Virus record (IMG/VR): IMGVR_UViG_3300028833_000053
Source: a virus
Taxonomy: Duplodnaviria > Caudoviricetes
Length of the DNA: 64,000 bases
Reading direction: 5' to 3' (one strand)
Part shown: positions 12-64,000 of the stretch, in pieces
Layout: the number at the start of each line of letters is the position of its first letter
Position numbering within the stretch: the stretch's first letter is position 1
Notes under the pieces: generated by a model
The model's database searches: none
What the model was told of the DNA's origin: nothing
Seen by the model: the letters and a program-made list of their open reading frames with translations, nothing else
Made by a program: the position numbers and the translations under genes

Positions 12-524
12 TTGCCAACCTACAACGTGCAGCTTGAAGACCTTGATGGGCGGGAGCCAACGCATTCACAGGGGAATGGGGAACACAAGGACACCAACCG
101 CTGCTATGGGAAGATAAACAGGAAGTTCCGCCATCCCGAAGAGGGGGCAACGGAAGTGAACCGCTGCTATGGGACAGTAAAGAGGTTTACAACCTATGGC
201 GTGGAGGGCAAGAAATACCCAGGTTCCATATTGAAGTTCCAACGTCCTCATTGTTCCGGCAACCACCCAACCGAGAAGTCCGTTGACCTTTGCCGCTGGC
301 TTGTGAGAACATACACCAATCCGGGAGAGACCGTGCTTGACGCGACAATGGGCTCCGGTACAACCATAGTAGCCGCAGCCTTGGAAGGACGCAACGCCAT
401 TGGAATTGAACTTGAGCCTAAATACTACAATGTTGCGGTTCAAAGGACTTCCGGCTTTACAAATTCATTCATAGAACCTATAATTAAACAGGAAGAACAG
501 GAGACCCAAGATGACAGTAAATGA
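12..524 (+). CDS. Site-specific DNA methyltransferase (N4C/N6A family), C-terminal part; 5' end probably outside the window
   Basis: HPTEKSVDLCRWLVRTYTNPGETVLDATMGSGTT...GIELEPKYY matches the typical beta-class N4/N6 MTase C-terminus. Confidence 0.85.
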   Translation: MPTYNVQLEDLDGREPTHSQGNGEHKDTNRCYGKINRKFRHPEEGATEVNRCYGTVKRFTTYGVEGKKYPGSILKFQRPHCSGNHPTEKSVDLCRWLVRTYTNPGETVLDATMGSGTTIVAAALEGRNAIGIELEPKYYNVAVQRTSGFTNSFIEPIIKQEEQETQDDSK

Positions 525-855
525 ACTCATTGAGAAACTGAAGGAATACGGTGACGAAAAGACCCGTGACCTGGCAACTGTGAGGATTCTCAACCGCGAT
601 GGTGGGGTAATCGACGATCACATTGACGCATTTGACGTGAAGTTTGGAATCAAGAGCGTTGACATTCCCCTTGACGTGTAGACCTACACGCCGGCGGAAG
701 TGGATTGTGGCGATGACTGGTCCGCATGGGACGAGGATTATGACGGGTATTATGACGAGGACTGGGAAGAGTATGACGATGAAGAGGAAGAGGAAGCGGG
801 CGAAGATGAAGAGGACTATGGCTGGGGCGACGATGAAGAATCATGGAAACCATAA
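511..855 (+). CDS. Hypothetical protein (114 aa) with a highly acidic tail; one in-frame TAG at 679-681
   Basis: ATG at 511 overlaps the MTase end. MTVNELIEKLKEY...PLDV(TAG)TYTPAEVDCGDDWSAWDEDYDGYYDEDWEEYDDEEEEE... ends at TAA 855. Confidence 0.7.
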
Positions 856-884
856 TTGAATTTCTTTCATGTGTTGACGCAACA

Positions 885-914
885 AATGCCACCTTTCAAC
901 GGGTGGCTTTTTCT
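885..914 (+). terminator. Intrinsic terminator
   Basis: GCCACC-tttcaac-GGGTGGC hairpin followed by a T-run. Confidence 0.65.
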
Positions 915-926
915 TTGCAAGGGGTA

Positions 927-955
927 TTGACTTTACACGTCCAATATGATATACT
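927..955 (+). promoter_or_regulatory. Sigma70-like promoter
   Basis: TTGACT-N17-TATACT with TG extended -10, upstream of the sigma factor gene. Confidence 0.75.
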
Positions 956-982
956 GACAGTGAACAAAGGAGAACTGTTTCT

Positions 983-3015: not shown

Positions 3016-3543
3016 ATGAAAATTGAAGTGTACAGCTTGAACAAGATTCTCAAGGTCGCGGACCGTGAGAAGGGGTGCAACATTCTCTCAATCAGAGATC
3101 CCTATGCAGGGGACGATGGCACGACGGACGCGAAACATGCGTGTCTTGACAGGAGAATCGCAAGGAATGGAATCAACGCCAAGATTGTCTATTTCGACGA
3201 CATAGACCCGTACCGTTTCTATCATGACATGGAGCATCCTTTCATCAAGGCGAAGTTCGTGGATGGAACGCATCAGCCCACGTTTTTCAACGCGCAGATT
3301 GCCGGCGAGATAATGCACTGGGTGATGGACTTGTGGAAGAAAGACCACAACTGCACCATCAAGATTCATTGTTGGGCGGGCCGTTCTCGGTCGCAGGCCG
3401 TTGGCTATTGGCTGAACATGTACTTTAACCTCATGTTGGAGCGCAACATTGAGGACTACATGGCGAACAACGCCGTCAACGTGACGGAGAAGATTCACTT
3501 CAATTGCGAGGTGCTGCGCGTGTTCACGTCAACTTTTGGATGA
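3016..3543 (+). CDS. Protein tyrosine/dual-specificity phosphatase-like protein
   Basis: CX5R loop IHCWAGRSRS; upstream FDD motif. Confidence 0.75.
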   Translation: MKIEVYSLNKILKVADREKGCNILSIRDPYAGDDGTTDAKHACLDRRIARNGINAKIVYFDDIDPYRFYHDMEHPFIKAKFVDGTHQPTFFNAQIAGEIMHWVMDLWKKDHNCTIKIHCWAGRSRSQAVGYWLNMYFNLMLERNIEDYMANNAVNVTEKIHFNCEVLRVFTSTFG

Positions 3544-6225
3544 CGAGCCGCTTGAGCTGGAGGACGATGAGGAACTTCCCCCGCCACCTTCCTGCCCTCC
3601 CGTTCCAAATTTCATCATGCTCTCGAAGTTTGCAAGGGACTTAACCAACTTGTCAAACTTGTTGCAGGCGCACTTCACCGGTATGCACTTCGGCTCAACG
3701 TGGTTCTCGGAAAGGGACAGGTGATTCCAAGGCTTGAGTTCCGTTATGTCAATGCCGCCTTGGCAAAGTTCAGCGGCAAGGCAAGTTTCATTTGCTTCCG
3801 ACTGTACGCTTGAACCCATGTTCATTTGGTCTTCGTTGGAATACTTGTTTGGTTGAAGTTCGTGCAAGGCAATCTCCTCATCGTACTCCTTCTTGTTCTT
3901 CATGTTGTTCACGTCGGAATAGATGCCATACGCCTCTTCAACCTTCTTGAGCAGTTTGTGGTTCTTCTCGCGCAGTTCGTTTATCTCGCATAGTTGGGCA
4001 TCGTTACAGCAGTTTCCATTCAACGATGGGTCTGCCATGACCGCTGAAATGGCAGCTTGCTTTATTCCAATTGCTTCAACCGCCGCGCACATCCACTGGC
4101 AAAGTTCCTTCACGAAAGGTCTGTAGTTCTCCGAGAGGAACGCTATGTTCTCCACCTTGTAGCACACGCAAATGGGCTTTAGCAGGTCGCAAAGGTGTCC
4201 GGGGCAGGTGAAGTGACCTATCAAGTCGCATGTGTCGAAGTTGTACGAGTCATAGCCGGTGCTTGCTGCCGTTTCACTGATAAGGGTTTGGTCAACAACA
4301 ACTGGACTCCAAGGCGAACAAGAACTCATTACAATAGCACCCATTGGGATTTGGTGGGTGTGGTCGTGTTCCGTTGTCACCGGAACTTCCTGCAAACGCC
4401 ACCAGTTGTCCGGGCAACTTATGATCCCATCCGTTCCACCGCCATGGTGTTCAACCTCTATTCTCCACAGTCTTGTCAAGAACTCCCTTTCCCAACAGTC
4501 ATACACTTCCGTCCATGCGTCCAACATGGAATCCTCAAATGCGTTTATGCTGTCAATTGCCATTTGACACCAAGTTGGAAGTTCTATTGTCGGGCCTTTT
4601 TCTCCGTACTCCCAAAGTTGGTTGAACATAGAGTCAAGAATGTTCTTTCCTTTCTTCGGCAACAGAGCCTGGTTCACCATTACGTCCATCACGCCCTGTT
4701 GGATTACGCACTTGAAGGCCGTTATGTGCTTCTTGAGTTTCTTCGGGCACATTCTTGTGTGGGTGATGGAACAGTGCCACCCTGGGTTCTCGTGGTCGCC
4801 TTTCTAGTCCTCTATGAGTTCGTTCATTATGTCCAACGCGCCATAGACCGGATTGGCAAGAGTGTCTATGTTGCACCATATCAAGGGGAACGGTCCAGGC
4901 CCGGAAGGGCATACGCATCTGCATTGCTTCATCGTGTCAAGGGACTTTTCCCTCAATTCTTGGAACAGCTTTTTCACGCAACTCAACTTGTTCGTAAGGG
5001 TGAATTTCTCAACGGCATCCTCCTTTGGCGCAATATACGTTGTACCTTCCTTCTTGTGGTTTTCCACACCCGTGTCGGTTACGCCAAGTTTCTTTCCCAT
5101 TTGGGAGTCTATTATCTTGGAAGTGAAAATCTTTTCCTTGTCTTGAGCCGCGTCTTGCTCTATCGTTTCCTTCACGTTGAGGAACTTTGAGATTGTCTGT
5201 GACACCGCGTCCTTGTTCATCAACCTGTCAATCACGCCCTCCAGCAAATCCACTTTGCGAATCATCGTCTCGATTGCGATTGGCTGCATGGGGAATTCGC
5301 AATAGGTTCCGAGTTTCATCATTTCAACCATTTCGCCCGTGAGACCGGGAACCCAATAGTCCTTGCAGTAGCGTTTGGTGCAAGAGTCCGGTCCGCGCTT
5401 GATGAACCAGTTGTTCGCCCAATCCTTCAATGCACGTCCAGTCCAAAACACGTTTGTTTGGAACGTCTCTTTGCAATCTTGGTTGGGGATGGAAAGAAGT
5501 TTGTCGTAGGAGTTGTTGTCAACCACAGTGTAGAGGTGTTCCATTCGCAGGATGTTTGCCTTGTACTGGTCAAGCGCCGCAAGCACCACGTTCTTGTCCT
5601 TTTCGTAGTGTTGCACCCAGCCTTCCGGGGCGAAGAACCTTGGATTGGTTGTTTCGGGATCGTAGATCTTCCCTTCAAGTTTTAGGAAGTCACGGCACGT
5701 CTTCTCCATCGTGATGAGATCGTCCTGTGGGGTGAACTGATCTGCAACGTTGTCGCGTTGCGTGATGGGGCAAGAGCTCTGTTTTGGAATGGCACGATAC
5801 ACGGTGAATATCTTTTTGCACATGGAGTTGACGGAATCATCAACGTCCTGCATTCCAACTTCACCAAGATCGGTGTCGGGATTTGTTCCACCCGGATATT
5901 CAGCTGCACTGTCCCCATTGGCAGAGCCGCCGCCGCAACTGCCGCCTTTTTTCTTTTGTTGTTCCTCTTCTTTGTCCTTGCCGTCTTCACCACTGCTTTC
6001 AGTCATTTGGGACAACTGGTCGAGTATGGCATCCTCTGCCTTGTCCCCTGCCCAAGAACCTACTTTTTCCCCGATATATCCTCCAACCATGCTTCCTATC
6101 GGACCGCCATATGCCGCACCAATGGATTCACCTGCCGCTTTTCCAGCTTTACCCCCTATTTGTGAACCCATCTGCCCTCTTTCAACTGGCGTGTTTTCAA
6201 TGAGATTTTCTTTCAATTCTTCCAT
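3529..6225 (-). CDS. Large Cys-rich hypothetical protein (898 aa) with an N-terminal glycine zipper; one in-frame TAG at 4804-4806
   Basis: ORFs 4804-6225 and 3529-4752 share a frame and are separated only by TAG plus 17 open codons; GTAAATA on the minus strand at 6250-6256. Confidence 0.75.
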
Positions 6226-8154: not shown

Positions 8155-11100
8155 ATGGCTCAACCAAGGACACAAGATAACCAAAAGGTATTTCAATCGG
8201 CGACATAGAACTTCAAGTCCTTTGTCGGTGCGGTTGACAATGTGTCGTCGTCAAAGAACATCAGTGAAATCTACGACAACATGACAAAGTTGTTTGACGT
8301 TTTCACCCAAGGTGCTTTGACGGGTCAGGGCGCAAACTCCGAGATTTTGCTGCGAACTGTCTACCGTTCCTTGTCGGATGACTTCCTGAAGATAATCCAG
8401 GACACGGACGCCGTTGAAAAGATAGTGGAACTCATAAAGAGCAAGCAGGAAAGCATAGACCCTGAGCAGGTTGACCAGGCTATGGTTTCCGAGACCACGA
8501 AGAAGGTTGTCACGAAGACGCTTGACCCATACGAGTGCGATCCAATGTCCGTGGTGTTGGATTTCGTTGACGAGCTTCAAACGGCAATTCTTCAAGTCAA
8601 GCTCAACCTCTCGCGTGAATACGAGAGGAAGAAGCTGGCTTATGCGAAATCCTATGAGGGACAACAGGAAGATCTTGACCGCCTCAATCAGGAATACACC
8701 GAGCAGGACGAGGCTATGGTGGAAGTCCTTGAACAGATGTCCGAGGACGAGGAGACTTGGAAAGAGGATTCGCTTGAGAAGTTGGAGAAGTTGCTTGAGA
8801 CGTTCAATGAGATTGGCAAGGGCAAGGATTCCAACTATGAGTTGTTGCAGGGTGTTGACAAAACCCTGTCCACCGACAAGCAGATTCAGCAATTCTTGAA
8901 GGAGAAGCCACCGAAGTTCTCTCCGAAGAAAACGCTTGATGCCATAAAGGGTGTTGGGCAGTTGAAGAGCAAGCCGGACGTCACAACCGTTGAGAGCAAG
9001 ACCCAAACCAAGACCGTTGTGAAGTCCACGCAAACGGAAATCAAGAACACGGTTGTGGTGAAGGAAAAGGCGAAGAAAGACGGAAAGAAAGTTCCATAGC
9101 CGAAGGTTCCTGAAAAACCAGTTGCGAAGGACGAGAAGAAAAAGGAAACGCCTGTAAAGGAAAAGACACCCGAAACGCCGACTCCGGTGAAGAAGGATGA
9201 GGCAAAGACGCAGACCCCACAGGTTCCGGAGAAAACTCCAGAACCCATTGGCAAGAAGGGTCCGCCACCAATCCAGCAGGAAAAGATAAAGGTTGCTCCG
9301 CCTCCACCATTGCCGGTAGTTCCACCTCAAATCGAGAAAGAAGAAAAGCCGAACGAGGATGAAAAGGCTAAAAAGCCCATTATGGAAAAACCCATAATGG
9401 AGAAGCCCATTATTCAAAAGCCGGTAATGGGAAAGCCGATAATAGAAAAGGCGGTTGACGAAAAACCCAAGGTTGAGAAACCAACTCTGGAAAAGGCAAC
9501 GAAGGAAAAGCCGACAATTGAGAAACCAAAGGTTGAACCAGTATAGGTATAGAAGCCAACCTTGGAGAAGCCAATGGTCGAGAAGCCGACGGTTGAAAAG
9601 CCCGTCGAGCAAAAGCCAATTGTTGAAAAGCCTGTAGTTGAAAAACCCAAAGAGGGAAAGACCACGGTTGAGAAGCCCAAGGTTGAAAAACCTAAAGTTG
9701 AGAAGCCAATTACAGAAAAACCCGTTGTTGCCAAGCCAATTGTTGAAAAGCCAAAGGTTGAGAAGCCGACATTTGAGAAGCCAAAGGACGAGAAGCCTGT
9801 AGTTGAGAAGCCCGTTCAACAAAAGCCGAAAGTCGAGAAGCCTCTTGTTGCGAAGCCGGTGGAGAAGAAGCCTTTGATAGGCAAGCCGTTGGTGAAGAAG
9901 CCCATTTTGGAAAAGCCGACGGAAGGGAAGCCCATTGTCCAAAAGCCATTGGTCAGGAAGCCTCTCATACAAAAGCCTGTTCTGTCAAAACCAGTTCTTG
10001 GAAAGCCGACAATGGGGAAGCCCATTTTCCAGAAGCCAATCACGCAAAAGCCCCTTCTTCAGAAGCCAATAGTTGAGAAGCCCATAAAGAAGAAGCCGTT
10101 GTTGGAAAAGCCGAAGGTTGAAAAGGCGAAGGTGGCGAAGCCGAAAATTGAAAAGGTCAAGTCAAAGGCCGCAAAAAAGGCTCCTGCCAAAATAGTCAAA
10201 AAGGCTGCAAATGCCGTTCCAAAGTCCCCAATGGGGAAAAAGACGCCCGACCCGAAATTGGCGCAAAAGAACTTTGCAAAGGAGTTGGACAAGACCTTGA
10301 ACGCCGGAAAAGTTCAAGAGCAGAAGTACACCAAGCAGTTGGATGTAATAGAGAAGTTTTTGGCAAAGGACGAGAAAGACGATAAGCAAAAGCACGCCGA
10401 GGATGCAAAGCAGCACAAAGAAGATGACATCATCTTCAAGAAGATGCAGGAGAAGGAAAAGAAGGTAAATGCTGCGAAGGACAAGGCCGAAAAAGAAAAG
10501 CGGGACGAGGAGAGGAAAAAGCAAGCCGCAAAGAAGAAGGAGGCGCCGAAGGCCGTCAAGGCGCAACCCAAACCCGCGTCGGCTCTTGGAAAGAAACCCG
10601 CTCCAGAGAAGCCAAAGGACACCAAGCTCAAGGTGAAGCCCAATGCGGGAATGTGTACGTGCCCGATATGCGGTTCGCAACACCTTCCTGGAATGCACTC
10701 ACATGGCGGGAAGAAAAAGGGTGCAATGCCAATGCCGATTCCCGTTCCAATGGGGAAGGGAAAGCAGGGCAAGTTGGCGCAACCCGCAATTCCATTGAAT
10801 CCACTTGGAGGTGACTAGTCCGAGGGTGGAATTCCACAGGACAAGATTGTGTCCACCCTTGGCACAATCCACGACAACTTGGGCAAGACGATGAACAACA
10901 AGAAGTTCAAGAACTCCTTCATGCTCAACTACAAGCCGATTCAAAAGGGCGTGAAGAAGCAACTTGACAAGGTTGGTTCGGACGAGAAAACCATCAGCCA
11001 GGACTTGGCGGAAACAGAGAAGGGCATCAAGAAGTTGAAGAACAAGAAGAAGGGCAGCTTCCTTTCGAGGTTGATGAACGGCGGCATAACCGGACTCATA

Positions 11101-14100
11101 TTCAAGGTCATAGGTGGATTGATTCTCATTGCCCTTGCAAGAATCGCGTTGAAGAAGTGGAAGGAGGCGTATATGCCTCCGACCGACGGCTCCACGATGA
11201 CCATATTCGGATTCCAGATTCCCGGATGGGACACCATAAAGGCAATTGGAATAGGCATATACAATTTCGTCACCGTGGGATTGATGAACCACTATGACAG
11301 ACTCAAGTTGTTCTTTGGAAACCTTCACAACCAACTTTTCGGCAAGAAGGGGGCAATACGAAGCATGGCGCAGGTTCGCCACATATTGCGCAGAATAGTT
11401 TGGGCGTGGATTATCGGACAGACGAAGAAGGCCGCGCGCGGCCTTTGCGACTGGCTGCTTGACATCTTGGCAGTCCCCTTGAACGCCTTGGCTCCTGGCG
11501 CGGGGCTTGTGTTGAAGTTCCTCATCAAGCTCCTCCCGGAAATATACTCGTTCATCACCACCCAGATAATGCTCTTGTGGAGCAAGAACAAGCGCGATGC
11601 GGAAGAGGCCGAAACCGCGGAAGCCGAAAGCATTGGAATGGCCGTCAATTCGGGAACAACCACGGCGATGAGCATGATAAGTTCCCAGCTCAAGGGTTTG
11701 TCCTCTGGGGTGAAGCCATTCAAGAACCAGGCGGCGAACCTACCCGGTCTTGAAACTCAAAAGGGTCCGAAAGGAAGGGGCCCGAAGAAGATGGCCATAA
11801 TGCGCCGCTTCCCAATCAAGTATTACAAGTCCTTTGACAAGGCGAAGAAGATGCAGAACAAGAAGTTTGAGTCTGACATGGAGGAGAACAAGCAGAAGGA
11901 CGAGAAGCGCATAAACGGCGGGGACGTTCTCATCAGCCAGATCGTCGAGGACACGTCAAAGATAAACCAGGCGGTTGACGAATTTACTGGAAGTATTGGA
12001 ACGTGGATCCATAGTTGGGACAATGAGAAAGTTGCGAAAATAAGGAAGTATGCCCCGAAAGAATATGAAGATGCAGACAATCGGGTGTTGGCAGATAAGT
12101 GGAAATGGGATAAAGAATTCAAATAGAAGGTAATTCATAATTACACGTCGTCGATTAGTCAGGAGATATACAAGAGAACCATAGTGGTGGAGCTGAACAA
12201 GGTTTCCGCGTACATGAACGCGCTTGGAAAGTCCTAGAGATTCAAGAACGTGAAAGGTCCGCTGTATGATCCAGTCAAAGGGTGGAATCCTGGATACAGG
12301 GTGTATGCCTCCGATTTGAAGACGGCGATTCCATTCAATCCGCTTGAAAAGATACACAGCAAGGCCGACATTCCAATTGGCGAGCCTGCGAAGGCCGAAG
12401 CCGATTCAATTGGTTGGATGCCCTTCAAGTGGATTTCCAATGGAGTTCCCGTGAACGTGCATCCTATAAACTGGGAATTGGCTAGGGCGAACGCCATATG
12501 GAACTTGTATAACTGGTTGATGAAGAACCGTTTTCAGAACAATTTGAACAATTGGAACACAACCAACATTGAAGATTTCAAGAAAGCCATTCTTCCAGAC
12601 GTGTTTGCCGACTGGAGAAGCTGGAACCAGCCTGTTGGTGATCACAGAAGCGAAGCCACATGGGGCAAGGCATATCCGCCAGAGACATATCAATATGGCG
12701 ATCAATTCGTACGGTTCATAAATGCTTTCCGCGCTGGCAAGATAGATCATGGGAACAACAATCTTGACACCGCGATGAAATTGAGAGACCCGACGTATCT
12801 TGAAAAAATGTTCGACAAGATGCACAAGAAGTTGGGCGACTATGGCACTGCGGCGGTTTCCGGCGCTGCCATAGGTGGTGCTGTCGGTGGTGCGGTTGGA
12901 GCCGTTGCTGGTGCGGCAATAGGTACCGCAGCGGTTGGTGTGTACAAGGGCGCAAAGTGGGTTGGACAGAAGATGGACGACTTGCAACGCGCTTTGTCCT
13001 ACGACCAAGATCCAGACGGAGAGGAGGAAGAATAGACGGAAGAAGTGGAGGAAGAGCAAAGCAGCGTTCCTCTCATAGGTTGGTTGATAAACGGCGTCAA
13101 GAAAGTTGTCAAGGTCATCAAGAAAATCGTCAAGAAGGTGAGCCGCAAGGTCGCAGCCCTCAACCGAATCAAGGAATGGCGCGGCAAGACCTATTTTGGG
13201 GTTAACTATGGTGACATCCGCGATTTCATGATTGACACTGGCGTTTTGCAGTTGTTCAGTCAGGGATAGATCATCAAGCCAGTCCAAAAGACGATTCCTC
13301 TTCTGGACAAGCTCATTGACATGAAGGTGATAGGGAAGGGGTCAAGCGTGGAGGATGGCAACTCGATGCATTCTCTCATGGAGGCTTTCTTCGCATACAA
13401 CCGCATTGAGGGATATGACTGGAAGAAAATGCAAAATGACGAGAGGGCGCAGGCTGCTTTCGCCCAGTCCCTTTTGGAATATCTCGCCTTGAAGGTCATT
13501 CCTCAGTGGAACATAGTTGAAAAGCTCCTTTCAAACGACGTTACGAAGAAAACCGACGAAACCAAAAAGGCGATGGATGAAGGTGTGCAGGTTCTTGCAA
13601 ACTTGCTTTCATTCAAGGGCATAATGGAACACCTTTCAAAGCATCTCCGATTCCCCAACATGAAGGTCAAGGTCATAGACTTCTCCAATGCAAGGGACGA
13701 TCACGACAGGGAGTTGCTTGAACAGTTCAGAAAAGACCAGGGAATTCCCAACAGCGATGAAAAGAACCAAATACTTGCACAGTGGCAAGGCGTTTGGTCG
13801 AAGATTCCAAGCATGAACGATGAGGAGCTTCAAGGCAGCTTGGATAACTTGAAGAAACTCATTGGGGTTGCGGCATTTGAAGCGAAGTACACCGGAGAGT
13901 TCACTTACGAGAAGCAGTTGCGCAAGTTCTACACCGCCATGATAAAGGAGAAGGACGAGCGTTTGAAAGCACAGGCCGCAGGTGACAAGATTGTTCAGAA
14001 GCCGGGTGGGATAGAGCGCGTCATGGAAGGTCCGCCGCCGAAGACCATGTTGGAAATGGAGGAAGAACGCAAGGCAAAGGAAGCCGAGGAAGCAAGAAAA

Positions 14101-14598
14101 GCGGCGGAAGAAGAAGAGAAGCGCAAAGCCGAAGAGGAAAAGAGGCTGCAAGAGGAGGCGAAACGCCAAGAGGAATTGAAAATTGCCCAGGCGAAGATTG
14201 CCGCCATGGAAGCCATCAAGAAGCAGGAGCAGAACTACGAGAACATCTTGGAGAAGATGGTGCAAGACCCATCAACGGTGACTGATGAGGAATTGAAGTC
14301 ACTTGGTGAAGACGTGAAGAACTTGAAGCAGGAAGCAGAAAACAGGATTGCACAACTGCCAAGAGAGGAAAGGGAAATGAAGCTGGCGTTGATTCGCGGC
14401 GACAAGCTTTCTGAAAAGACCTTCGCCGAGTTGAAGGAAACCGCAGTGGGGTTGAGTGGAAGTCTACAAGCCTACATCTAGGAAGTGAACCAAATTCCAG
14501 TTGGCTCTATAATGGCAATATAGGAAACGCCAGGAACGCCAACAGAAAGCAAGATATAGTTGCAAGACTCCGACAATGTGGATATGGGCGACGAATAA
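8155..14598 (+). CDS. Giant 2147-aa protein with KPxxE pentapeptide repeats, hydrophobic segments and coiled coils; 12 in-frame TAGs; possible tape-measure or ejection-type virion protein
   Basis: Seven listed ORFs (8242, 9187, 9562, 10849, 12250, 13045, 13321) lie in one frame. The only breaks are TAG at 8206, 9097, 9544, 9550, 10816, 12124, 12235, 13033, 13267, 14479, 14521 and 14557. ATG at 8155, TAA at 14596. Confidence 0.85.
9370..10160 (+). repeat. Degenerate 15-nt (5-aa) tandem repeat encoding KP-x-x-(E/Q/G/K)
   Basis: KPIME KPIME KPIIQ KPVMG KPIIE ... KPKVE KPTFE ... KPLIQ KPVLS, roughly 50 units. Confidence 0.9.
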
Positions 14599-14629
14599 AA
14601 AGACTTGGTTGGATAAGCCAAGTCTTTTT
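14598..14629 (+). terminator. Intrinsic terminator next to a TATAAT element upstream of the tRNA
   Basis: AAAAGACTTGG-loop-CCAAGTCTTTTT; TATAAT at 14632. Confidence 0.75.
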
Positions 14630-14654
14630 AGTATAATTGAATGTGACGATTTAA

Positions 14655-15406: not shown

Positions 15407-15554
15407 TTTTGTAGTAAAAACTACACAGGACAGATTGACTCTAATCAATTTTGGCTAGGTTTGCATAACGCCTAGCCATTACTGTTTTAGACTAAAATGG
15501 TAAATACTTATAAACTTGTTAGAGCAAGGTTATAAAAATAAAGGTAATTAAGTT

Positions 15555-49674: not shown

Positions 49675-51114
49675 ATGGAAGGATATACTGACACAAGGGT
49701 ATTCGGCTATTATGGACAGCCTTATGCGTACATTCCCGTACCGTAGCCACCGGTGCCACCACCTGTGGCTCCGCCTCCCCCTCCTCCCCCGCCGCCGCCA
49801 CCGCCTCCATACATATATCCATATGCGCCGCCGCCCGAGGTGAAGCAGCACGAAGAACCAGATCCACCAATAGGAAGTGTGCCTTTGTTTTCGTTCTCCG
49901 TCATTTCGGATGTGCATTTGAACGATGAGACGGATGAATCGGGTTGCGATGACTTGAAGCATTTGTTCTACTTGCTTGGGCAAAGGAATTATCTTGACGA
50001 TTTCAACCTCAAGTACATTTGCTGTTGCGGTGACATTGGAAACAACGAAGACCACGAGTTTCCAACGTTTCAACGCATTGTGAAAAAACACTGCCCGATA
50101 GAGTCCGACAAGGTGTTTTCTTGTGCAGGCAATTACGATTAGGAATTGACCGCGGCACAATGGAAAGAGCAAATGTACGATGCAAGTTTGCATGAGAAAG
50201 TCACGTCCGACAAGAACTTCTCGTTTACGGAAGACAATTTCGTGTTCGCGTTCATGTCTTTGGCTACGCAAGAGGACACTTTGTCCGACGTTCCTGAAAG
50301 GAAATGCTATTTGGATGACGTGAACACGCATACAAGGGAATGGTTGACGGAAGTTGTTGAAAGCGCAAAGGGCAAGACCTTGTTTCTGTTCATGCACTAT
50401 CCTCTTGTCAACCGTCAGTGTGCGGACACCACCCAAGTTGATGTTCCCGTGTATGATTGGACAAGTGGAAGGTTTGACAGCCAAAGAATGAACGTTGCTT
50501 CAACTGCGGTTCCCTATGCGGGTTCCTTGGATCGTTGGTCTCTCCAAGAAGTGCCATTGCATTTTGGCTATGGCTTCCACACGCCTGTTGGAATTCAAGA
50601 CTACAGCATAAAGTCTGAATCAGAGTAGATAATTGAAATTTTGGACAGGCACGAAGAAGGAAAGACTTTCGTGTTCAGTGGACATTCTCATCTTGTGTTC
50701 CAAACGGAAAAGTACGATTACTTCAGTGCAACGGGGTATCCAAACTTCAACGTTGCTGCAATACCCGACACCAACATCGTTACGATACACGTTCCGGCGT
50801 TGAATCACCCAAGAATGTTGGCTGTAACCGATCCCGGAAACATAGCTGGATGGGATACGGTATCACCAGCTTCCCCCTATCGTCAACCTAGCCAGTCTTG
50901 GATAGTGACGGTATATGATGACAAGCTTGTTTTGAATGGGTTTGAATCCAATCTTAACCACGACAAGAAGTATGGGGATTTGCTGACTGACTACACCTAT
51001 ACCTTGAACTTGAATGATTATGTCACGCGGGATGAATAGCCCGGCGACGATGATGAAGGTGGTCATGGTGGAGATTCAGAAGTTGAACACTGGATTAGGA
51101 CACCCAAGAAGTGA
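49675..51114 (+). CDS. Metallophosphoesterase with an N-terminal polyproline tract (479 aa), four in-frame TAGs
   Basis: Motifs SDVH, CGDI, GNYD, MHYP and SGHSH fall in three standard-code fragments; TAGs at 49744, 50140, 50626 and 51037. Confidence 0.85.
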
Positions 51115-51463: not shown

Positions 51464-51760
51464 ATGGCAAAGTTCACTAAAAGAGAATCAGAAGAGGAAG
51501 AGGACGAGAAGGCAAAATCCCTTCGTTGCTTTGAGAATCAGCCAAACATCAACATGGTGATTCCCTGGCTTTACGAGATTAGCAAGTCCATGTCAAGTTC
51601 AAGAGACAGTGATGATGATGACGACAAGGCAAAGTCCTTGAAGTGCTTTGAAAACCAACCGAACATCAACATGGTGATTCCGTGGGTGTATCAAATATAC
51701 AAGTCCGTGAAATCTGGTGGTGGCTCAGGTGGAGAGACGATAGAATGGGATGAGGATTAA
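51464..51760 (+). CDS. Small protein made of two ~40-aa internal repeats
   Basis: KAKSL(R/K)CFENQPNINMVIPW(L/V)YxIxKS twice. Confidence 0.75.
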   Translation: MAKFTKRESEEEEDEKAKSLRCFENQPNINMVIPWLYEISKSMSSSRDSDDDDDKAKSLKCFENQPNINMVIPWVYQIYKSVKSGGGSGGETIEWDED

Positions 51761-51764
51761 GAAT

Positions 51765-52154
51765 ATGGGAACAAAAGTCACGTTCAAGATAGTTTCTTCG
51801 GGAAATCCATTTGTTTTTTCTACCAAGAAAAACGATTTGGTTCCTGATTATAAGGATGGTCAGATAATTTTCGTGGAAGATTAGTGCAAGATATACCTTG
51901 ACTTCCACGATGAGCGCAAGTGCTATACCCCAGACGTTCCTGTTTCATCCGGTGGATTGCGTTATCTGGGTATATTTGACGATGGATTTGATCAAGATGA
52001 TGAAACTACATGGAAAATTGGTGGAGACAGTGTTTCACCCAATGAAAATGACATGGCAGTTTATGGCAACAAGGAGTTCATGTACCGCAAGGGCGAGGAT
52101 GGGAAGTTTGGTTGGTTTGAAATCGGTGACGAAGACGCTCCTGTGTGGAATTGA
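51765..52154 (+). CDS. Putative tail-fibre-associated small protein; one in-frame TAG
   Basis: ATG 51765; DGQIIFVED(TAG)CKIYLDF; continues into ORF 51957. Confidence 0.65.
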
Positions 52155-54701: not shown

Positions 54702-55023
54702 AATACATATCGTAGCGTGGAAAGTGAAGATGGGAATGTGAGTTTCCCATCTTTATTTTTATTTCAATTTGTGGTATAATGTATCTGGACTATATTGAAA
54801 GGACATATGCAATGAGCAATTCGACAAAAGTTTCCGTGGGTGGAACAAGTTTCACGAACCTTCTTTTCCTGGTTTTTCTTGTGTTGAAACTGACGAAGGT
54901 TATTGACTGGAGTTGGTGGTGGGTGACCGCTCCGCTTTGGATTCCATTCAGCCTGATTCTGGTTTTTCTGATTTTGGTTGCTATTGCTTCATCTTCTTCA
55001 GGAAGAAGATGGTAAATACCATC

Positions 55024-55668
55024 ATGGAAATTGTGAAGAAGATAAAGGACAAGTTGTATTAGTTGTGGGCGAAGTTCCTCACGTACTTTGGGAAGATAAA
55101 GATATTGAGCTTCAATTTCTTTCCCGTGCTTGTATATGATCCCGATCCATTTCAGGTTACTGGATATGACATCACCGAGATAATGAAGTTGATAAAGCCG
55201 GGTGACGTTCTCATACGCGGCTACAACAAGTACCTTGACGGGAAGTTCATTCCAGACGAGAGGGGGTATTCACACGCAGGGCTTTACATTGGGGGAAACG
55301 AGGTCATACATTCAGTTGCACCGAAGGTTTGCATTACGCACCTCATAGATTTCTGCGAAGCAGACCGCATAATGGTGTTGCGTCCGATTTGCGGACAAGA
55401 CGAAGCCATAACGATAGCGAAGAGCAAGATTGACGTTCCCTATGACTTTGACTTCAAGTCCGACATAGGGAAGTTGTACTGCTTTGAACTTATAGCCAAT
55501 TGCTATCCACAGGCGAACATACAGACATACACACTGAAGAAACTGTTTGGTATAATTAAGAGAAAGTGCTACATAGCGAAGTCGATATACCTGAATCCGT
55601 ACTTTGACATTGTATTTGAAAGGAACGTCAAGAATGAAACTGGAGCAAGATGTTTGTGGGAAAATTGA
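55024..55668 (+). CDS. Permuted papain-like NlpC/P60 (YiiX/YebB-like) hydrolase; TAG at codon 13
   Basis: KPGDVLI, YSHAGLY, PYDFDF, LYCFELIANCY; ATG 55024, TAG 55060. Confidence 0.8.
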
Positions 55669-57139
55669 GAACGCCCCCACGTTGCTGGAGAAAGTCAAGA
55701 TTTTATTGAACGAAGCTCATATGTCTGACGTGGTATATGAGACAAAGGAAACCGACAGTTCCAAGGTTCAAGACATTGCGTTGATTCAGTGTTTTTACGG
55801 AACCGACATCCGAAGGATAAGGGCAACAACACAGGCAATTGAATTCAACTTGCACATGACAAGCAAACCATCATCTTGGGTTTTCGTTGAATGTCAAACA
55901 AAGAAGTCCGAATGCGCCTTTACTTGGTTGAAGAAGTATGGCATCAAGCATGTGTTTGTTCCAATGAAAGCGAACAGCAAGGGAATCATGCTCAAGAACC
56001 CCTTATGGAACATTGGGGCTATGAATTGCAAGGAGCAGAAGTTGTGTTTCGTTGACAGTGACGTTGTGTTGTGCAACTCCGATTGGGTGGAAAAGACGGC
56101 CCGGGAATTCGAGTCAGGCTATGACGTTCTTTCCTTGGCATCGCATCAATACTACCAATCGGATGATTCTTGCAAGTTGTATGAAACCATTGGGTACAAG
56201 TGGAAGAACAAGTCAACGGTTGAAAACGGACATTGTGGATTCACCCTTGGAATCACGCGAGGTCTTTTTGAGAAGATTGGGAAGTTTGATCCAACGTTGA
56301 TACTTGCGGACATTGACACGTTCCACAAGATAATAGGGGACAAGTATTTCAAGCCTTTCCAGAAATGGTGGTTTCCAACCAATCCCACGTTAGTAAACAG
56401 GGGATTCAACTGTCAATTCGGGTATGTTGACAACATTGCCTGTCATGTTTGGCATGGTGATTGTGAATCAAAGTATGATGACATAACCACGTTGTTGCGA
56501 AAATGTGGCATGAAAGACATCCTTGACTGTCTTGACAATTGCAAATTGCCGACATGGAACATTTCAACGTCAAGAAATATGGCACTAAAAAACGTCATGT
56601 TGCGGTATCAAAAATATATGTCATTGGATGAAGAGACACGAAATGGAAAGTCCTTTGATATGATGGGGGAATACTATTCTGAATTGGAGAACTTATCTGG
56701 AAAAATAGATGATGCTCATCCGTTGATTATATGCACCGTGGTTGAAGATGGATTCAATGTCAAGTTGACGGATTTTCTTGAGTTTAAGCAACATGTGGAA
56801 AAGGAATTTTCCCATTCCAAATTGAAACCCCAGGTTTTGTTCTTTACCGACTGTGATGAATTTGATTTTGCATCTGTTGAAGTGAATATAGTTCCTATAC
56901 AAAGTGGACTCTCAGAAAATGAATACATTGAATTCATAATGGGTAATGCACAGATATATCCAAAAAATGCCATATTGTACTATATTCCATTTGATTTGCA
57001 AAAGTTCAATGTAAAATTGGGGATTCCAAGCCAGAAGATGGAATTTTATGATGGAACTATTCTCATTCCAACATCAACAAATACTTCAATACAAAACAAT
57101 AAGAAATCAAGAAAACTTATGAAGTTGATTTCCAAATAA
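55634..57139 (+). CDS. Glycosyltransferase-like protein (GT-A fold)
   Basis: KNPLWNIG, FVDSDV (DxD), GKFD, HVWHG. Confidence 0.6.
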   Translation: MKLEQDVCGKIENAPTLLEKVKILLNEAHMSDVVYETKETDSSKVQDIALIQCFYGTDIRRIRATTQAIEFNLHMTSKPSSWVFVECQTKKSECAFTWLKKYGIKHVFVPMKANSKGIMLKNPLWNIGAMNCKEQKLCFVDSDVVLCNSDWVEKTAREFESGYDVLSLASHQYYQSDDSCKLYETIGYKWKNKSTVENGHCGFTLGITRGLFEKIGKFDPTLILADIDTFHKIIGDKYFKPFQKWWFPTNPTLVNRGFNCQFGYVDNIACHVWHGDCESKYDDITTLLRKCGMKDILDCLDNCKLPTWNISTSRNMALKNVMLRYQKYMSLDEETRNGKSFDMMGEYYSELENLSGKIDDAHPLIICTVVEDGFNVKLTDFLEFKQHVEKEFSHSKLKPQVLFFTDCDEFDFASVEVNIVPIQSGLSENEYIEFIMGNAQIYPKNAILYYIPFDLQKFNVKLGIPSQKMEFYDGTILIPTSTNTSIQNNKKSRKLMKLISK

Positions 57140-57210
57140 CCCAAATATGCTTGTGCCTTTATTTGTCTTTTTTGGTAAATAATGTATATTAGGCGAATGA
57201 GACACATAGA

Positions 57211-57759
57211 ATGGGCAATTTCTATATAAAAACATTGAATGTAACTGGAAACAGGCTGTTTTCCAATGAGAAAAATCCATTGGACATTCCTCCGTTGCCA
57301 GAGCCAGAGAAGGTTTAGATTCCTGAAGCCAAACCATAGAGGTTGTCTATCGTATGGTGGAGGCATCCAAAGGACGAGCCGAAGGATTGGAAGGAACTGA
57401 AAAGCATTCCACCACCGCCCTGGGCGCCGCCGCCACCACCTCCTCCCATTCCTCCACCTACACCGGCTCCGACTCCTCCGCCAAAACCACCTACACCATA
57501 TAGTCCATATTCCGACCCGGATACGGACAAGCCTGGTGTCATTCCATACATAAGGCCGATCAAGGGTGTTTTGCAGCGTGGCACTATTCATTGTGTTTGG
57601 ATTAAGGGCAAGAAGCCACCACCCCCTCCACCTCCGCCAATTCCACCACCACCATTCCCGGTTCCCCCTCCTCCGCCAGGACAATCCATTCCTTTGGTGA
57701 ATCCAATGCAGCAATGGGGACAATATATGTACTAGGCGTTTCCAAATCAACCACGTTGA
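57211..57759 (+). CDS. Polyproline-rich protein (182 aa), three in-frame TAGs
   Basis: ATG 57211; TAG at 57316, 57337 and 57733; TGA at 57757; GTAAATA at 57175. Confidence 0.7.
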
Positions 57760-57790: not shown

Positions 57791-58438
57791 GTGGTTAACT
57801 ACTTTTACATATCGGACGTACATTTTGGCTATCAGACAGACACAAATCCCATAAGGCGGACGTCCTATCAACTTACTTTCTCGCATTACAAGTTGAACGG
57901 TCCAAAGGACTATGACAACAGATTGACAAACAACTGGAACGCCATAGTGAAACCAACGGACCATGTTTTCATTCTTGGGGACATTTCCTGCTACGACACG
58001 AAAACCACGGTGAACTTGTTGAAGAACTTGAAGGGGCAGAAGCACCTCATATTGGGAAACCACGATTATCAGTTCCTTCACGATAATGACTTCCGCGGCC
58101 AGTTCGTTGAAATCAAGAACTACAAGGAGCAGAACATTGGGGATGGCGTGAGACTTATTCTCACTCATTATCCATTTTATACGTGGAATGGACGTTACAA
58201 AGGCAATCCAATGTTCTACGGTCACGTCCACAATACCTGGGAATATGACTCCTTCAAACAGTGCCAGGAAGCCCTGTACAAGTCATAGAACGAAAACTAT
58301 CCCTTGAACTCCTTGAACGTTGGCAGCATGATGCCTTGGATGAATATGACGCCGAGGAGCTTCCAATTCTGCATGAATGAAATGCAGAAGCAGCAAGACG
58401 AAGAAATTAGGCAGTTTCACATCTAGGGAATGAAATGA
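57791..58438 (+). CDS. Metallophosphoesterase; two in-frame TAGs near the C-terminus
   Basis: SDVHFG, LGD, GNHD, THYP, GHVH; the family-like NVGSMMPWMNMTP segment lies after TAG 58286. Confidence 0.85.
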
Positions 58439-61042: not shown

Positions 61043-61303
61043 ATGAAGAAGACCATGAAGAAGTCCACGAAGTCCATCACCGCGCCCAAGGCCGTTCTCG
61101 TGAAGCCGACCGCCTCCTACACGAAGGATGAGGTCCGTTCCATCCTGCAGCTTTCCAAGGGCACCGCCCTCACGCGCCGTCCTGGCATGAATGGCCGTGG
61201 CAAGATTCCTGGCACCGCCGTCATCGCTTACCTTGAGAGCGCGAAGCGCGTCAAGGCTGGCCGCCGTTATGCGTCCGGCACGGTCACGGTTGTTGCCCGC
61301 TAA
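61043..61303 (+). CDS. Small basic protein, possibly DNA-binding
   Basis: Lys/Arg-rich; own promoter TTTACA-N17-TATAAT and downstream hairpins. Confidence 0.55.
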   Translation: MKKTMKKSTKSITAPKAVLVKPTASYTKDEVRSILQLSKGTALTRRPGMNGRGKIPGTAVIAYLESAKRVKAGRRYASGTVTVVAR

Positions 61304-61429
61304 TCTAAAGTTCCCTTGACCTCCATTTATTATTGAGGGAACGAGGTGGCTCCGAGTGGAGTCACCTTTTGTTTTACATATTGCGTACTTTGTTGTATAA
61401 TGTGGTATAACCAGAGGAAACATTTTATC

Positions 61430-62461
61430 ATGGAACAGACAACAAAGAAACGTGGCAAGAAGCCGAACAACGCAAATTCCAGAATGTACGTCAACGTCAA
61501 CCGTCAGAAGAAGGGGTATAAGGACAAGTACAAGGTTGAGACGGACAACGCGCTGCGCAAGTTCAAGGCAGATATGGGAAAGCCGGAAGACTATGAATTG
61601 ACGGAGCAAGAATGGCGCAGGTTCTTCACGACAATTTTGATTCCACTTGACCGCGAACGCGAAGTTAAGATGATTGACATGTTCAGAAGCGACCGCCCCC
61701 AGTTGAACAACCTTCTCATTCTACATAACGCCAAGGCCGGGGAAAACCTTGCCGAAGTCTATTTCAAGAAGTACCTCAAGAACTGCCCTACAAAGTGGTA
61801 TGATCTTGAGGACTTCAAGCAGTTGGCGAACGAGGGACTGGCAATAGCCGCAAAGAAGTTCGACCTTGACTACAAGAACCGCTTTCTGACATATGCAACG
61901 TGGTGGATATTGAACAAGGTGAGAAAGCCATACCAGGACAAGGGCGCAATGCTTACGCATACTTCCCTCTCCGCGCCAGCAGATTCATCGGACGACACCA
62001 ACCAAACAACCGTTGAGGACATTTTGGCACCCGACAAGATTATGCCTGGGTGGGAATCCTCCAGTGATGGGGATGACAACTCAAACCCATTGGACGTTCT
62101 TGAACGCAGGGATTCGGAGGAGAACCACAACCTCTACGCAGCCATAAAGACTTTGAAGCCAAACACATTGGAAACATTGGACAAAAACAAGGCAAGGCAA
62201 ATGATGGACTACCTTGTGTCCATCGTGGAGCAAAACGAAAACTCCTATGACAACAAGCAGATTTTCCTATATCTGTTCAGAAAGATATTCAACAAGTGTT
62301 CCACCATCTTCAAGGACTCCGAACCCCAAAGCAGAATAACGTCCTATGTGTCGGAAGCGGCCAAATCCAAGGCCGAACTGTTGAAGCGGTTGAACATGGA
62401 TGAGAAGCAATATGAGATTGCCTGCCAGAGATTGACAAGGGGTGGCTACAATGGCGTATAA
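61430..62461 (+). CDS. Second sigma-factor-like protein (region 2 recognisable)
   Basis: LILHN...LEDFKQLANEGLAIAAKKFDLDYKNRFLTYATWWI. Confidence 0.75.
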   Translation: MEQTTKKRGKKPNNANSRMYVNVNRQKKGYKDKYKVETDNALRKFKADMGKPEDYELTEQEWRRFFTTILIPLDREREVKMIDMFRSDRPQLNNLLILHNAKAGENLAEVYFKKYLKNCPTKWYDLEDFKQLANEGLAIAAKKFDLDYKNRFLTYATWWILNKVRKPYQDKGAMLTHTSLSAPADSSDDTNQTTVEDILAPDKIMPGWESSSDGDDNSNPLDVLERRDSEENHNLYAAIKTLKPNTLETLDKNKARQMMDYLVSIVEQNENSYDNKQIFLYLFRKIFNKCSTIFKDSEPQSRITSYVSEAAKSKAELLKRLNMDEKQYEIACQRLTRGGYNGV

Positions 62462-62786
62462 GAAAAAGTCTGATGGTTCAACAAAACCCAGTCTTGACCT
62501 CTTCATGATTCTGGGAAACATTCTCGTTGACAAGGACGAGAGGATATATGAAAGCCACGTCCAAAACGAACTGTTCCAGTCCGTGTTCTCAACTTTCATG
62601 GTGGTGCGCTATCTTTCCATGAACTCAAACCCCAATGTACGGAAGATTGCCCTTGACTATCTGCCTATGTTGGAAAAGGTGGCGGACAAGCCAGAAATGG
62701 TGTATAAACTTCTGCTTAAGGTTGTGCCAAAGACCTACAACCGGTTCACGCCATACATTAAGTCCGGATTTCCAAGGGCGAACTAA
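62451..62786 (+). CDS. Possible T4 gp62-like clamp loader small subunit
   Basis: FSTFMVVRYLSM...YKLLLKVVPK...FTPYIK pattern and size. Confidence 0.45.
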   Translation: MAYKKKSDGSTKPSLDLFMILGNILVDKDERIYESHVQNELFQSVFSTFMVVRYLSMNSNPNVRKIALDYLPMLEKVADKPEMVYKLLLKVVPKTYNRFTPYIKSGFPRAN

Positions 62787-62803
62787 TATGTTGTATAATG
62801 TAA

Positions 62804-64000
62804 TTGAACTACGCAACAATTGGAGGTAGTTGCGATTCAGTTTGGTTCTTTATGAACAAACTGCTCTACCCGAAGTTCCTTCGGTGATAAAAATGTCCTT
62901 CAAGTTTTGTGCAGCGTTTTGGTCACGGTTGTGTTCCTTGCCGCACTTTGGACATAGCCATGTTCTATCTGATATAGTCAAGTCCCTATTGACATACCCA
63001 CAAACATTGCATGTCTTTGACGAGGCAAACCACTTGTCCGCCTCCATTACTATCTTCCCATGTTCTTCGGCCTTGGCTTTCAACCGTTGAACAAAGGTGT
63101 ACCAACCCAAGTCATAAACAGACTTGCCATGATTGGATTTATCTGGTGTGTTTTTTCTTTCGATCCATTTCTTGAACTTCGCCATGTCCTTCAATGATAG
63201 AGATTCAACAACTATGACATCATTTCCTTTCACCAATTCAGTTGAGGTTTTTTCTATGAAGTCTTTGCGCTTATTCTTGATATGTTCGTGAATACGAGCA
63301 ATTCTCATTCTGAGTTTTTCTTTCAATGACTTGTTTTTTACCGTAGATATTTTTCTCTAAAGTTCAGAAAGTTTCTTCTCATAGGCTCTATAATTTCTAT
63401 CGTATTGGGGTGAATTTCCTTCGTCATCTACGAAGAAGTTTGTTAAGGACATATCCAGACCCTTGACTTTTAAGTTTGGTTTATTGACATCCTTTTGAGT
63501 TTTAGTTGTAATAGCATCTTCGTACAAGATTGAGACATAATACTTCATAGATGGTGTTCTGGAAAAAGTCATGCTATGTATTTTTATGTTTTTAACAACA
63601 CGATTATCTCTGAAAGTTATCCAACCCAGTTTTGGTGCTTTGACTTTCCTTTTATCAAAATCTATTTTCAAGTTATTGTGGTTGCAAACAGTACGATATG
63701 AATTCTTAGCAAACTTTTTCTTGAATTTTGGAAATCCTTTTTCTGAGATTGGTACTTTGGGGTCTTTACATTTTCTCCAAAAATTTTCATATGCTACTCC
63801 AAGATTCATTCGCGTTTGTTGAAGTGCAACAGAATCCACTTCTTTCAAGAATATGTTTTCTTCCTTTAGTTGTTTTTCAGTTTTGTACTTATATTCGTAA
63901 AGTTCTCTCGGGGTGTTCTTTAGTTTTACATATACATCTTTTCTTTCTGAAAGCATAGTGTTGTATAAAAATCTGCAACATCCGAATGTTTTGTCCAATA
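62804..64000 (-). mobile_element. IS200/IS605-family element, right part; left end outside the window
   Basis: tnpB followed on the minus strand by hairpin CGCAAC...GTTGCG and TAGTTCAA, like an IS605 right end. Confidence 0.7.
62850..63998 (-). CDS. tnpB: TnpB RNA-guided endonuclease, 5' truncated by the window; one in-frame TAG at 63357-63359
   Basis: FGCCRFLYN, GFPKFKK, RuvC GLDM / VVESL / RDQNAA, zinc finger SKTCNVCG...CPKCG; the two ORFs are in one frame. Confidence 0.9.

Follow-up and report, generated by a model that had tools for sequence, protein, structure and literature searches.

Reassignment of TAG from stop to glutamine (code 15) is established in Lak phages, crAss-like phages, and many gut phages (10.1101/2021.08.26.457843), with proteomic proof in crAss-like phages (PMC9523058), and code-15 jumbo phages outside the Lak and crAss groups have already been published (PMC13037316; 10.1101/2021.08.26.457843). 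Suppressor tRNAs were detected in only 40–60% of recoded phages (10.1101/2021.08.26.457843; PMC13037316); the PMC13037316 survey, in which a T4-type portal is split by TAG, found a suppressor tRNA(CUA) in only ~60% of genomes. In the published model, suppression is established by early genes that are compatible with the standard code, and the recoded late genes come after them; in Jade phage a "code change module" of suppressor tRNA, TrpRS, and release factor 1 (RF1) lies upstream of the lysis cassette (10.1101/2021.08.26.457843). Here, we analyzed a 64,000-nt stretch (the window) of the IMG/VR virus record IMGVR_UViG_3300028833_000053 (Duplodnaviria; Caudoviricetes), for which a preliminary description had proposed genome-wide reassignment of TAG, probably to glutamine. 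We consider it highly probable that UAG is a glutamine codon in a complete T4-like jumbo phage, that a phage tRNA(CUA) encoded in the window decodes it, and that suppression probably gates late genes. The recoding is another case of the published code-15 phages and no new code.

As in those phages, TAG is read as glutamine, genes end at TAA or TGA, a phage tRNA(CUA) is present, a phage glutaminyl-tRNA synthetase (GlnRS) is absent, charging by the host is presumed, recoded codons are biased to late and structural genes, and close relatives have no detectable suppressor tRNA. The phage differs in being T4-like (gp23, gp20, gp55) with 47% GC, whereas the published recoding route starts at low GC, and, unlike some Lak and Agate phages, its 434-kb genome has no RF2 gene. 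With the code-15 jumbo phages of PMC13037316 it shares TAG recoding, a size above 200 kb, and an animal-gut-type habitat. However, a 10% gain in coding density was required there, and the gain here was only ~3 points with a crude gene caller. With such a gain and with TAG at ~7% of Gln codons, similar genomes could therefore escape the 10% criterion.

Genome and relatives

The window is the minus strand of positions 361268–425267 on a single 433,895-bp contig with a 127-bp terminal overlap, 46.6% GC, and 36 tRNA genes. Among its genes are those for a major capsid protein (Pfam Gp23, E 3e-72) and a portal (E 4e-65), both of T4 type, as well as for a family B DNA polymerase and a late sigma factor similar to gp55; these genes and the terminal overlap identify the contig as a complete T4-like jumbo phage genome. 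No GenBank phage matched 25 kb of the window by megablast. Two related IMG/VR contigs were found via ThyX, and both were taken whole: G001 (414,060 bp, direct terminal repeats, CheckV 100%) was judged complete, and G002 (201,557 bp) is partial. A scan of bacterial genomes with the TnpB of the window gave no relative and no host signal that would bear on the different host group suggested in the preliminary description.

Read-through of TAG

All 14 frames that the preliminary description had listed as continuing through TAG were open through TAG and ended at TAA or TGA (Table 1). The preferred starts of four of them (44856, 51717, 54913, and 57151) differed slightly from those given earlier (44862, 51765, 55024, and 57211). 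The proposed reassignment held beyond the window, over the whole 434-kb genome. Greedy longest-ORF (open reading frame) coding density did not discriminate between codes, because removal of any stop codon lengthens ORFs, and a codon-usage model trained on long ORFs was used in its place. After a confident coding stretch of 40 codons, the coding signal ran on past TAG in 63% of 127 cases, but past TAA and TGA in only 11% each (131 and 304 cases, respectively). Where one stop codon separated two coding segments in the same frame, this codon was TAG in 81 cases, TGA in 22, and TAA in 13. When codes 11 and 15 were compared by score-based gene calling, the TAG-sense models scored best with the fewest genes (443 genes and a total score of 45107, against 552 genes and 44484 under code 11), and the total score dropped when TGA or TAA was made sense. 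The TAG-sense models contained 277 in-frame TAGs, distributed over 118 of the 443 genes and every 20-kb bin; TAG made up 7.1% of presumptive Gln codons, and TGA was the commonest stop (287 genes). The same read-through signal was found in the relatives, where the TAG share of Gln codons was 6.4% in G001 (269 in-frame TAGs) and 6.6% in G002.

Homology agreed with the coding signal. Alignments to related phages (tblastn) crossed TAGs, and inside protein alignments to the relatives we counted 4 TAAs and 6 TGAs compared with more than 100 TAGs. TAG-bearing genes included the portal (four TAGs) and the gp55-like late sigma factor (three, at codons 24, 127, and 149). Pfam domains spanned TAGs in TnpB and in the metallophosphatase at 57791; in ThyX and the C92 amidase the TAGs were outside the Pfam match. 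Codon 166 of the 57791–58438 metallophosphatase was TAG in the 434-kb genome and in both relatives, in a highly conserved context. The claim that two catalytic centers are complete only with read-through was borne out: the DVH/GD/GNYD, middle His, and GHSH motifs of the 49675 phosphoesterase fall in three different TAG-delimited pieces, and TAG214 of TnpB lies between the RuvC Asp and Glu. A TAG occurred within 15 codons of the stop in 24 genes and within 3 codons in 9; no stop of a relative fell exactly on such near-terminal columns, and several were 1–2 codons away. A few of these TAGs may be relics of former stops. UAG is read through genome-wide in this phage, whereas TAA and TGA stay stops, genes ending only at UAA or UGA.

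Amino acid inserted at TAG

The assignment to glutamine was supported by four independent lines, namely codon alignments with the relatives, TnpB, the gp55-like sigma factor, and a family of TAG-rich mobile ORFs. For the first, all proteins with X at each TAG were aligned to G001 and G002 by tblastn and the aligned codons were read; the substitution profile of every amino acid was taken empirically from the same alignments. At 132 well-aligned TAG columns the partners were Gln (48), Lys (25), Glu (8), and scattered others, plus 15 TAGs. Gln ranked first, 97 log-likelihood units ahead of Lys in second place (74 when local identity was set more strictly), and Ser (−500 vs. −313 for Gln), Leu, and Tyr came far behind. 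The CAA:CAG ratio at TAG columns matched that of ordinary Gln-Gln columns; because CAA, which is two mutations from TAG, was as proportionate as there, mutational proximity is not the cause. In the reverse direction, TAGs of the relatives faced CAG or CAA at 1.3–1.9% per codon, and other codons at ≤0.4%. Within the window, TAG columns 1361 and 1705 of the giant gene (8155–14598) were CAG or CAA in both relatives.

The other three lines concern conserved residues. TAG214 in the KKLSEL-TAG-RKIS segment of TnpB aligned to a Gln of ISDra2 TnpB (PDB 8bf8/8exa), as had first been guessed, and TAG127 of the gp55-like sigma factor (NPFAYFT-TAG-ICW) aligned to the Gln of T4 gp55 in NPHAYITQACF (PDB 7d7c). 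In the family of the 15-TAG ORF at 15555 (eight sequences), invariant columns 48, 50, 174, 193, and 244 held only TAG, CAA, or CAG; the homologs are themselves TAG-recoded in DNA, and the comparison was made at the codon level.

Several other genes were uninformative on the amino acid. ThyX had no PDB match, the sole aligned TAG of the portal sits in a variable column (Leu in T4 gp20), and within-genome paralogs were too divergent. The V-TAG-KP unit of the giant protein occurs as described; the repeat is mostly xEKP and so does not separate Gln from Glu, as was stated at the time. This run of 4-residue xEKP/xQKP repeats (residues ~400–680, extensin-like in Pfam) is long, and its low complexity could mislead family searches. 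In the PTH2-type peptidyl-tRNA hydrolase of another contig (L155, 1333–1341), codon 3 is TAG (MR-TAG-V) in a column that is Arg in all other sequences and does not fit Gln.

Suppressor tRNA(CUA)

The most informative feature of the window, absent from the preliminary description, was a tRNA gene with anticodon CUA (Table 1). It lies just downstream of the terminator-like hairpin of the giant gene and ~90 kb from the main tRNA cluster. The predicted tRNA has the canonical layout of a 7-bp acceptor stem and a 5-bp T stem, all paired, with a 5-bp anticodon stem. U1 pairs with A72, position 73 is A, and the CCA end is encoded; the D-arm is compact and the variable region spans 19 nt. The tRNA scored 80.5 bits against a covariance model built from its family. 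With the variable arm removed, its body and D-arm were nearest to tRNA-Gln(UUG) among the 96 tRNAs of the three genomes. The U1-A72 pair is also found in the phage's own two tRNA-Gln genes, and the 1-72 pair across the tRNA(CUA) family was UA in 9, AU in 3, CG in 2, and mismatched in 8; the discriminator is A73, compared with G73 in Escherichia coli tRNA-Gln. An ortholog on L154, a short gut-metagenome contig, showed compensatory changes in the acceptor, anticodon, and T stems and shared the arm, the upstream GTATAATTGA, and the synteny from the end of the giant gene through the tRNA to a TAG-rich ORF.

The supE (glnV44) suppressor is a tRNA-Gln(CUG) mutated to CUA and has an ordinary short variable loop. 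The phage tRNA resembles it in its tRNA-Gln body, CUA anticodon, and Gln at UAG, position 36 being the sole difference between its anticodon loop, CUCUAAA, and the Gln loop, CUCUGAA. It departs from supE in its variable arm, which is structured and presents a Gln-type anticodon loop in intact form. Other identities were rejected. ARAGORN labels any CTA anticodon "Pyl"; tRNA-Pyl has a 3-nt variable loop, a 6-bp anticodon stem, and a small D-loop, which the 19-nt variable region and 5-bp anticodon stem do not match. A class II tRNA (Ser, Leu, or Tyr), as the long arm might indicate, was ruled out by the column data and by the long arms of the genome's Arg, Thr, and Asn tRNAs. Allo-tRNAs have long variable arms and an 8/4 or 9/3 acceptor/T-stem layout (PMC5389517). 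The phage tRNA is like these and other tRNA-Sec-like molecules in its long arm, its compact D-arm, its best Rfam match (tRNA-Sec, below threshold), and its occurrence in a phage; it differs in having a 7/5 layout, in fitting Gln and not Ser or Ala, and in conserving the loop sequence and not the length of the arm.

Long structured arms were also observed on several normally short tRNAs of the genome (whole-genome positions 245657–323588), namely Arg-TCT (89 nt), Thr-GGT/CGT/TGT (83–91 nt), and Asn-GTT (88 nt), and a tRNA-like gene of 97 nt at 316584–316680 has an unusual anticodon loop. Similar oddities occur in G001 and G002.

Glutamine anticodon loop in the variable arm

IMG/VR was searched with the exact anticodon stem-loop, and 80 loci were fetched from the many contigs found. 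ARAGORN identified 76 tRNA(CUA) genes in 66 of these. Among the 31 long-arm phage tRNA(CUA)s, 23 carried a Gln-type anticodon loop in the variable-arm hairpin, namely CUCUGAA (14), CUUUGAA (3), UUCUGAA (2, including the tRNA of the window), or a near variant. The arm loop has the sequence that surrounds the anticodon CUG or UUG in tRNA-Gln, with the form Y-U-(C/U)UG-A-A, and the anticodon loop of the phage's own tRNA-Gln(CUG) is exactly CUCUGAA. The loop is conserved while its stem covaries: pair 51-61 was CG in 9 and GC in 9, and pair 50-62 was UA in 11, GC in 4, and others. The other long-arm tRNAs of the genome had generic arm hairpins (e.g., a GAAA tetraloop), none copying its own anticodon loop. 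No published description of an anticodon-loop copy in a variable arm was found in an incomplete literature search. We conjecture that the arm loop is a Gln identity signal.

Five other loci (L037, L083, L095, L099, and L101) had a tRNA(CUA) with the same anticodon stem-loop on a class II (Ser/Leu/Tyr-like) body and with no Gln loop copy; that of L101 resembles tRNA-Ser with G73. The meaning of TAG may differ in these phages.

tRNA block, TAG-rich ORF, and PTH2

The block containing the tRNA runs from the giant gene through its terminator-like hairpin, the GTATAATTGA promoter-like site, tRNA(CUA), two small ORFs, a PTH2 relic, and the 15-TAG ORF to an intact PTH2 gene. The 15-TAG ORF has no TAA or TGA in its 366 codons, compared with 14–45 in the other five frames; TAG provides 15 of its 24 Gln codons and 4% of all codons. 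Six full-length homologs were found, and Pfam and PHROG gave no family match. Its AlphaFold model (pLDDT 75) had weak Foldseek matches, all to PD-(D/E)XK nucleases (best TnsA, E 6e-3), which hints at a putative nuclease domain of that class. The arrangement of a relic (17–22 codons) and an intact PTH2 flanking a TAG-rich ORF homolog recurred in four other contigs (L151, L155, L156, and L157); therefore, the 5′ end of PTH2 is the site at which the ORF inserted. Such a signature, in which the start of the target gene is duplicated, is unusual for the insertion of a mobile nuclease gene. The ORF appears to be a mobile nuclease gene whose expression requires the decoding of UAG.

The genome contains 15 islands with GC below 0.34, including ~15318–16917, 44718–45817, and 56568–57317 in the window. 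In this 47% GC genome, the islands coincide with homing-endonuclease-like or orphan TAG-bearing ORFs, which suggests that the genome harbors a group of mobile genes that have adapted to code 15.

Like the Jade module, the block places a suppressor tRNA among standard-code-compatible genes beside a translation-related gene, here the TAG-free PTH2, with a GTATAAT element on both. It differs in having no synthetase or release factor and in having the TAG-rich mobile nuclease gene in between, and the link of PTH2 to recoding is positional only. It is conceivable, although we would sooner doubt it, that the spare Gln loop is a working identity element for a host glutamine-charging or Gln-tRNA-handling enzyme and that, with PTH2, the tRNA forms a portable code-switch module spreading among T4-like jumbo phages, on which the mobile nuclease gene with 4% TAG depends.

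Distribution of TAG and promoter-like elements

TAG use was clumped, 118 genes carrying TAG compared with 166 ± 9 expected if it were evenly spread. Two 7-mers were enriched upstream of genes: GTAAATA, before 63 genes (13-fold), resembles the T4 late promoter TATAAATA, and GTATAAT, before 49 genes (11-fold), resembles the sigma70 −10 element. The TAG frequency per 1000 codons was 2.98 in genes directly behind GTAAATA and 1.03 in genes directly behind GTATAAT (ratio 2.9, P = 5e-4). Both tRNA(CUA) and PTH2 are behind GTATAAT elements, whereas the TAG-bearing ORFs of the window at 8155, 15555, 44856, 48695, 55024, 57211, and 57791 are behind GTAAATA. This pattern would fit the published model of early suppression and late recoded genes.

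Proposed mechanism and alternatives

No class I release factor (RF-1 family), GlnRS, or GluRS gene was found in the three genomes, so charging and competition with RF1 would rely on the host. In the mechanism we propose, host RNA polymerase would transcribe tRNA(CUA) from the sigma70-like GTATAATTGA promoter. A host glutamine-charging enzyme would load it, because the phage has no GlnRS or GluRS of its own, and the charged tRNA would compete with host RF1, because the phage has no release factor gene. The arm loop UUCUGAA (family consensus CUCUGAA or CUUUGAA) may serve as a glutamine identity signal that offsets the G36-to-A change of the anticodon. The denser TAGs behind GTAAATA and the three TAGs of the gp55-like sigma factor make it probable that suppression is also a gate on the expression of late genes, a role already suggested for other recoded phages.

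Several observations weigh against parts of this mechanism. We found no tRNA(CUA) in G001 by ARAGORN (default or relaxed), a pattern scan, or the family covariance model, and none was found in the partial contig G002 either; the CTA "tRNAs" given by relaxed ARAGORN in the two genomes were false positives with poor folds inside a conserved coding ORF. Because G001 is equally recoded, tRNA(CUA) may not be the only decoding route, or may not be essential. The tRNA is below the Rfam threshold, its best match being the tRNA-Sec model (33.6 bits vs. 47). Its arm stem has just two base pairs (GC/GC) in the family register, or alternatively TTC/GAA, and the variable arm of an L-shaped tRNA sits away from the anticodon-binding site of GlnRS. 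Genes behind GTATAAT are depleted of TAG but not free of it (6 of 45 carry one), and the timing of the promoter classes would follow from likeness to the T4 and sigma70 consensus sequences only. Lastly, Lys was over-represented at TAG columns (~19%, compared with 8–9% expected for a Gln codon); we think that this excess arises because AAG is abundant, being 3.5 times commoner than CAG in the 434-kb genome, and is one mutation from TAG.

The absence of the tRNA from relatives raises the alternative that TAG means Gln but that tRNA(CUA), carried on a variable insertion, has an accessory role. TAG would then be decoded mainly by a route shared with the tRNA-less relatives, such as a suppressor encoded by the host or brought in by co-infection, or an unrecognized RNA. 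In the complete and recoded G001, only ~190 nt occupy the position of the block that comprises the tRNA, the small ORFs, and the mobile ORF in the 434-kb genome, the tRNA is remote from the main cluster, and suppressors were found in just 40–60% of the published recoded phages. Nevertheless, the tRNA is well formed, is kept with compensatory changes and synteny in L154, and belongs to a widespread family under selection; with 277 sense TAGs and a matching tRNA, use of the tRNA is the simplest explanation, and we regard the accessory role as unlikely. It is considerably less likely still that TAG means Lys, or Gln and Lys ambiguously. In E. coli, tRNAs with the CUA anticodon are reportedly mischarged by either GlnRS or LysRS (Normanly et al.). 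Only Gln is a more frequent partner than Lys (25 of 132), which stands above the level of a Gln codon, several TAGs of the window face AAG in both relatives, and at column 114 of the mobile-ORF family six sequences have Lys and two have TAG. However, pure Lys was worse than Gln by 74–97 log-likelihood units, CAA was a frequent partner despite its two mutations from TAG, the invariant columns hold only CAA or CAG besides TAG, TAG faces conserved Gln residues of TnpB and gp55, and the abundance and proximity of AAG bear on the Lys partners.

The shape of the tRNA (90 nt, 19-nt variable region, tRNA-Sec as best Rfam match), together with the ARAGORN label, could also be read as Ser, Leu, or Tyr inserted by a class II, allo-tRNA-like molecule, or as pyrrolysine; long-armed allo-tRNAs insert Ser in E. 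coli (PMC5389517). We judge this very improbable: Ser, Leu, and Tyr were far below Gln at TAG columns, and the cloverleaf is a standard 7/5 with U1-A72 and A73, not the G73 of tRNA-Ser. The arm is no mark of class II in a genome whose Arg, Thr, and Asn tRNAs are long-armed, and pyrrolysine is opposed by the 3-nt variable loop of its tRNA. Finally, there might be no reassignment at all, and the in-frame stops might come from genome decay by nonsense mutation, from faulty assembly, or from programmed read-through at a few sites. Beyond the bare presence of in-frame stops nothing favors this, and its probability is close to nil, because TAG alone is affected, coding potential runs past TAG in three genomes, one TAG codon is common to all of them, and the 277 sites in 118 genes include the essential portal and the late sigma factor. 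Glutamine at UAG, decoded by the phage tRNA(CUA), is thus the reading we prefer.

Features of the window

The TAG-bearing ORFs and the elements of the tRNA block are listed in Table 1. Two sigma-factor-like genes at 983–1747 and 61346–62461 (Sigma70 regions 2 and 4; phrog_351) are free of TAG.

Table 1. Coordinates of the recoded ORFs and of the tRNA(CUA) block in the window (TAG numbers are in-frame codons; Zn, zinc)
Feature	Position	Strand	Evidence or remarks
ORF, 114 aa, 1 TAG, ends TAA	511-855	+	Coding score 0.63
ORF, 898 aa, 1 TAG (codon 474), ends TGA	3529-6225	-	Weak PHROG tail/tape-measure matches; G001 and G002 alignments span TAG
Giant gene, 2147 aa, 12 TAGs, ends TAA	8155-14598	+	GTAAATA at 8123; alignments
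Sigma70-like promoter match (TGGATA, 16 nt, TATAAT) with GTATAATTGA	14610-14640	+	Consensus match only; ~55 nt upstream of tRNA(CUA)
Suppressor tRNA(CUA), 90 nt	14692-14781	+	ARAGORN; anticodon CTA at 14725-14727
Variable-arm hairpin of tRNA(CUA)	14735-14753	+	7-nt loop TTCTGAA at 14738-14744, copy of Gln (CUG) anticodon loop
Two small TAG-free ORFs (95 and 82 aa)	14796-15334	+	In G002, absent from G001
Relic of first ~22 PTH2 codons, then stop	15338-15424	+	Marks insertion of next ORF
Apparent mobile ORF, 366 aa, 29% GC, 15 TAGs vs. 9 CAA/CAG	15555-16655	+	Two CPxCG Zn motifs; GTAAATA at 15500
PTH2-type peptidyl-tRNA hydrolase, TAG-free	16665-17243	+	PF01981, E 2.4e-10; GTATAAT at 16650
ORF, 132 aa, 1 TAG	32213-32611	+	Open-frame check
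ThyX with N-terminal Zn-ribbon, 347 aa	38561-39604	+	TAGs at codons 68 and 341, both outside Thy1 domain
Homing endonuclease (phrog_3339, DUF7487), 1 TAG	44856-45998	+	AT-rich island; GTAAATA at 44781
ORF, 322 aa, 2 TAGs	48695-49663	+	Open-frame check
Metallophosphatase-like ORF, 479 aa, 4 TAGs	49675-51114	+	Catalytic motifs over three TAG-delimited pieces
ORF, 1-2 TAGs by start chosen	51717-52154	+	Open-frame check
C92 (YaeF/YiiX-type) amidase ORF, 1 TAG	54913-55668	+	Pfam
AT-rich ORF, 3-4 TAGs	57151-57759	+	No family match; open-frame check, PHROG
Metallophosphatase, 215 aa, 2 TAGs	57791-58438	+	Pfam; codon 166 TAG in three genomes
TnpB, N-terminus off window, 1 TAG (codon 214)	62850-63998	-	Gln of ISDra2 TnpB aligned

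Implications

Under standard-code annotation, roughly one gene in four is broken, among them those of the portal, the late sigma factor, giant virion proteins, TnpB, and several enzymes; therefore, the functional reading of the 434-kb genome depends on code 15. The range of recoding is widened to a T4-like phage of ordinary GC content in which TAG is used modestly, at 7% of Gln codons, a level that density screens may overlook, and a complete sister genome is equally recoded yet has no suppressor tRNA. The suppressor tRNA offers a testable idea of how host synthetases charge stop-reading tRNAs with glutamine, a question left open in the literature, and it may serve as a natural amber-suppression scaffold.

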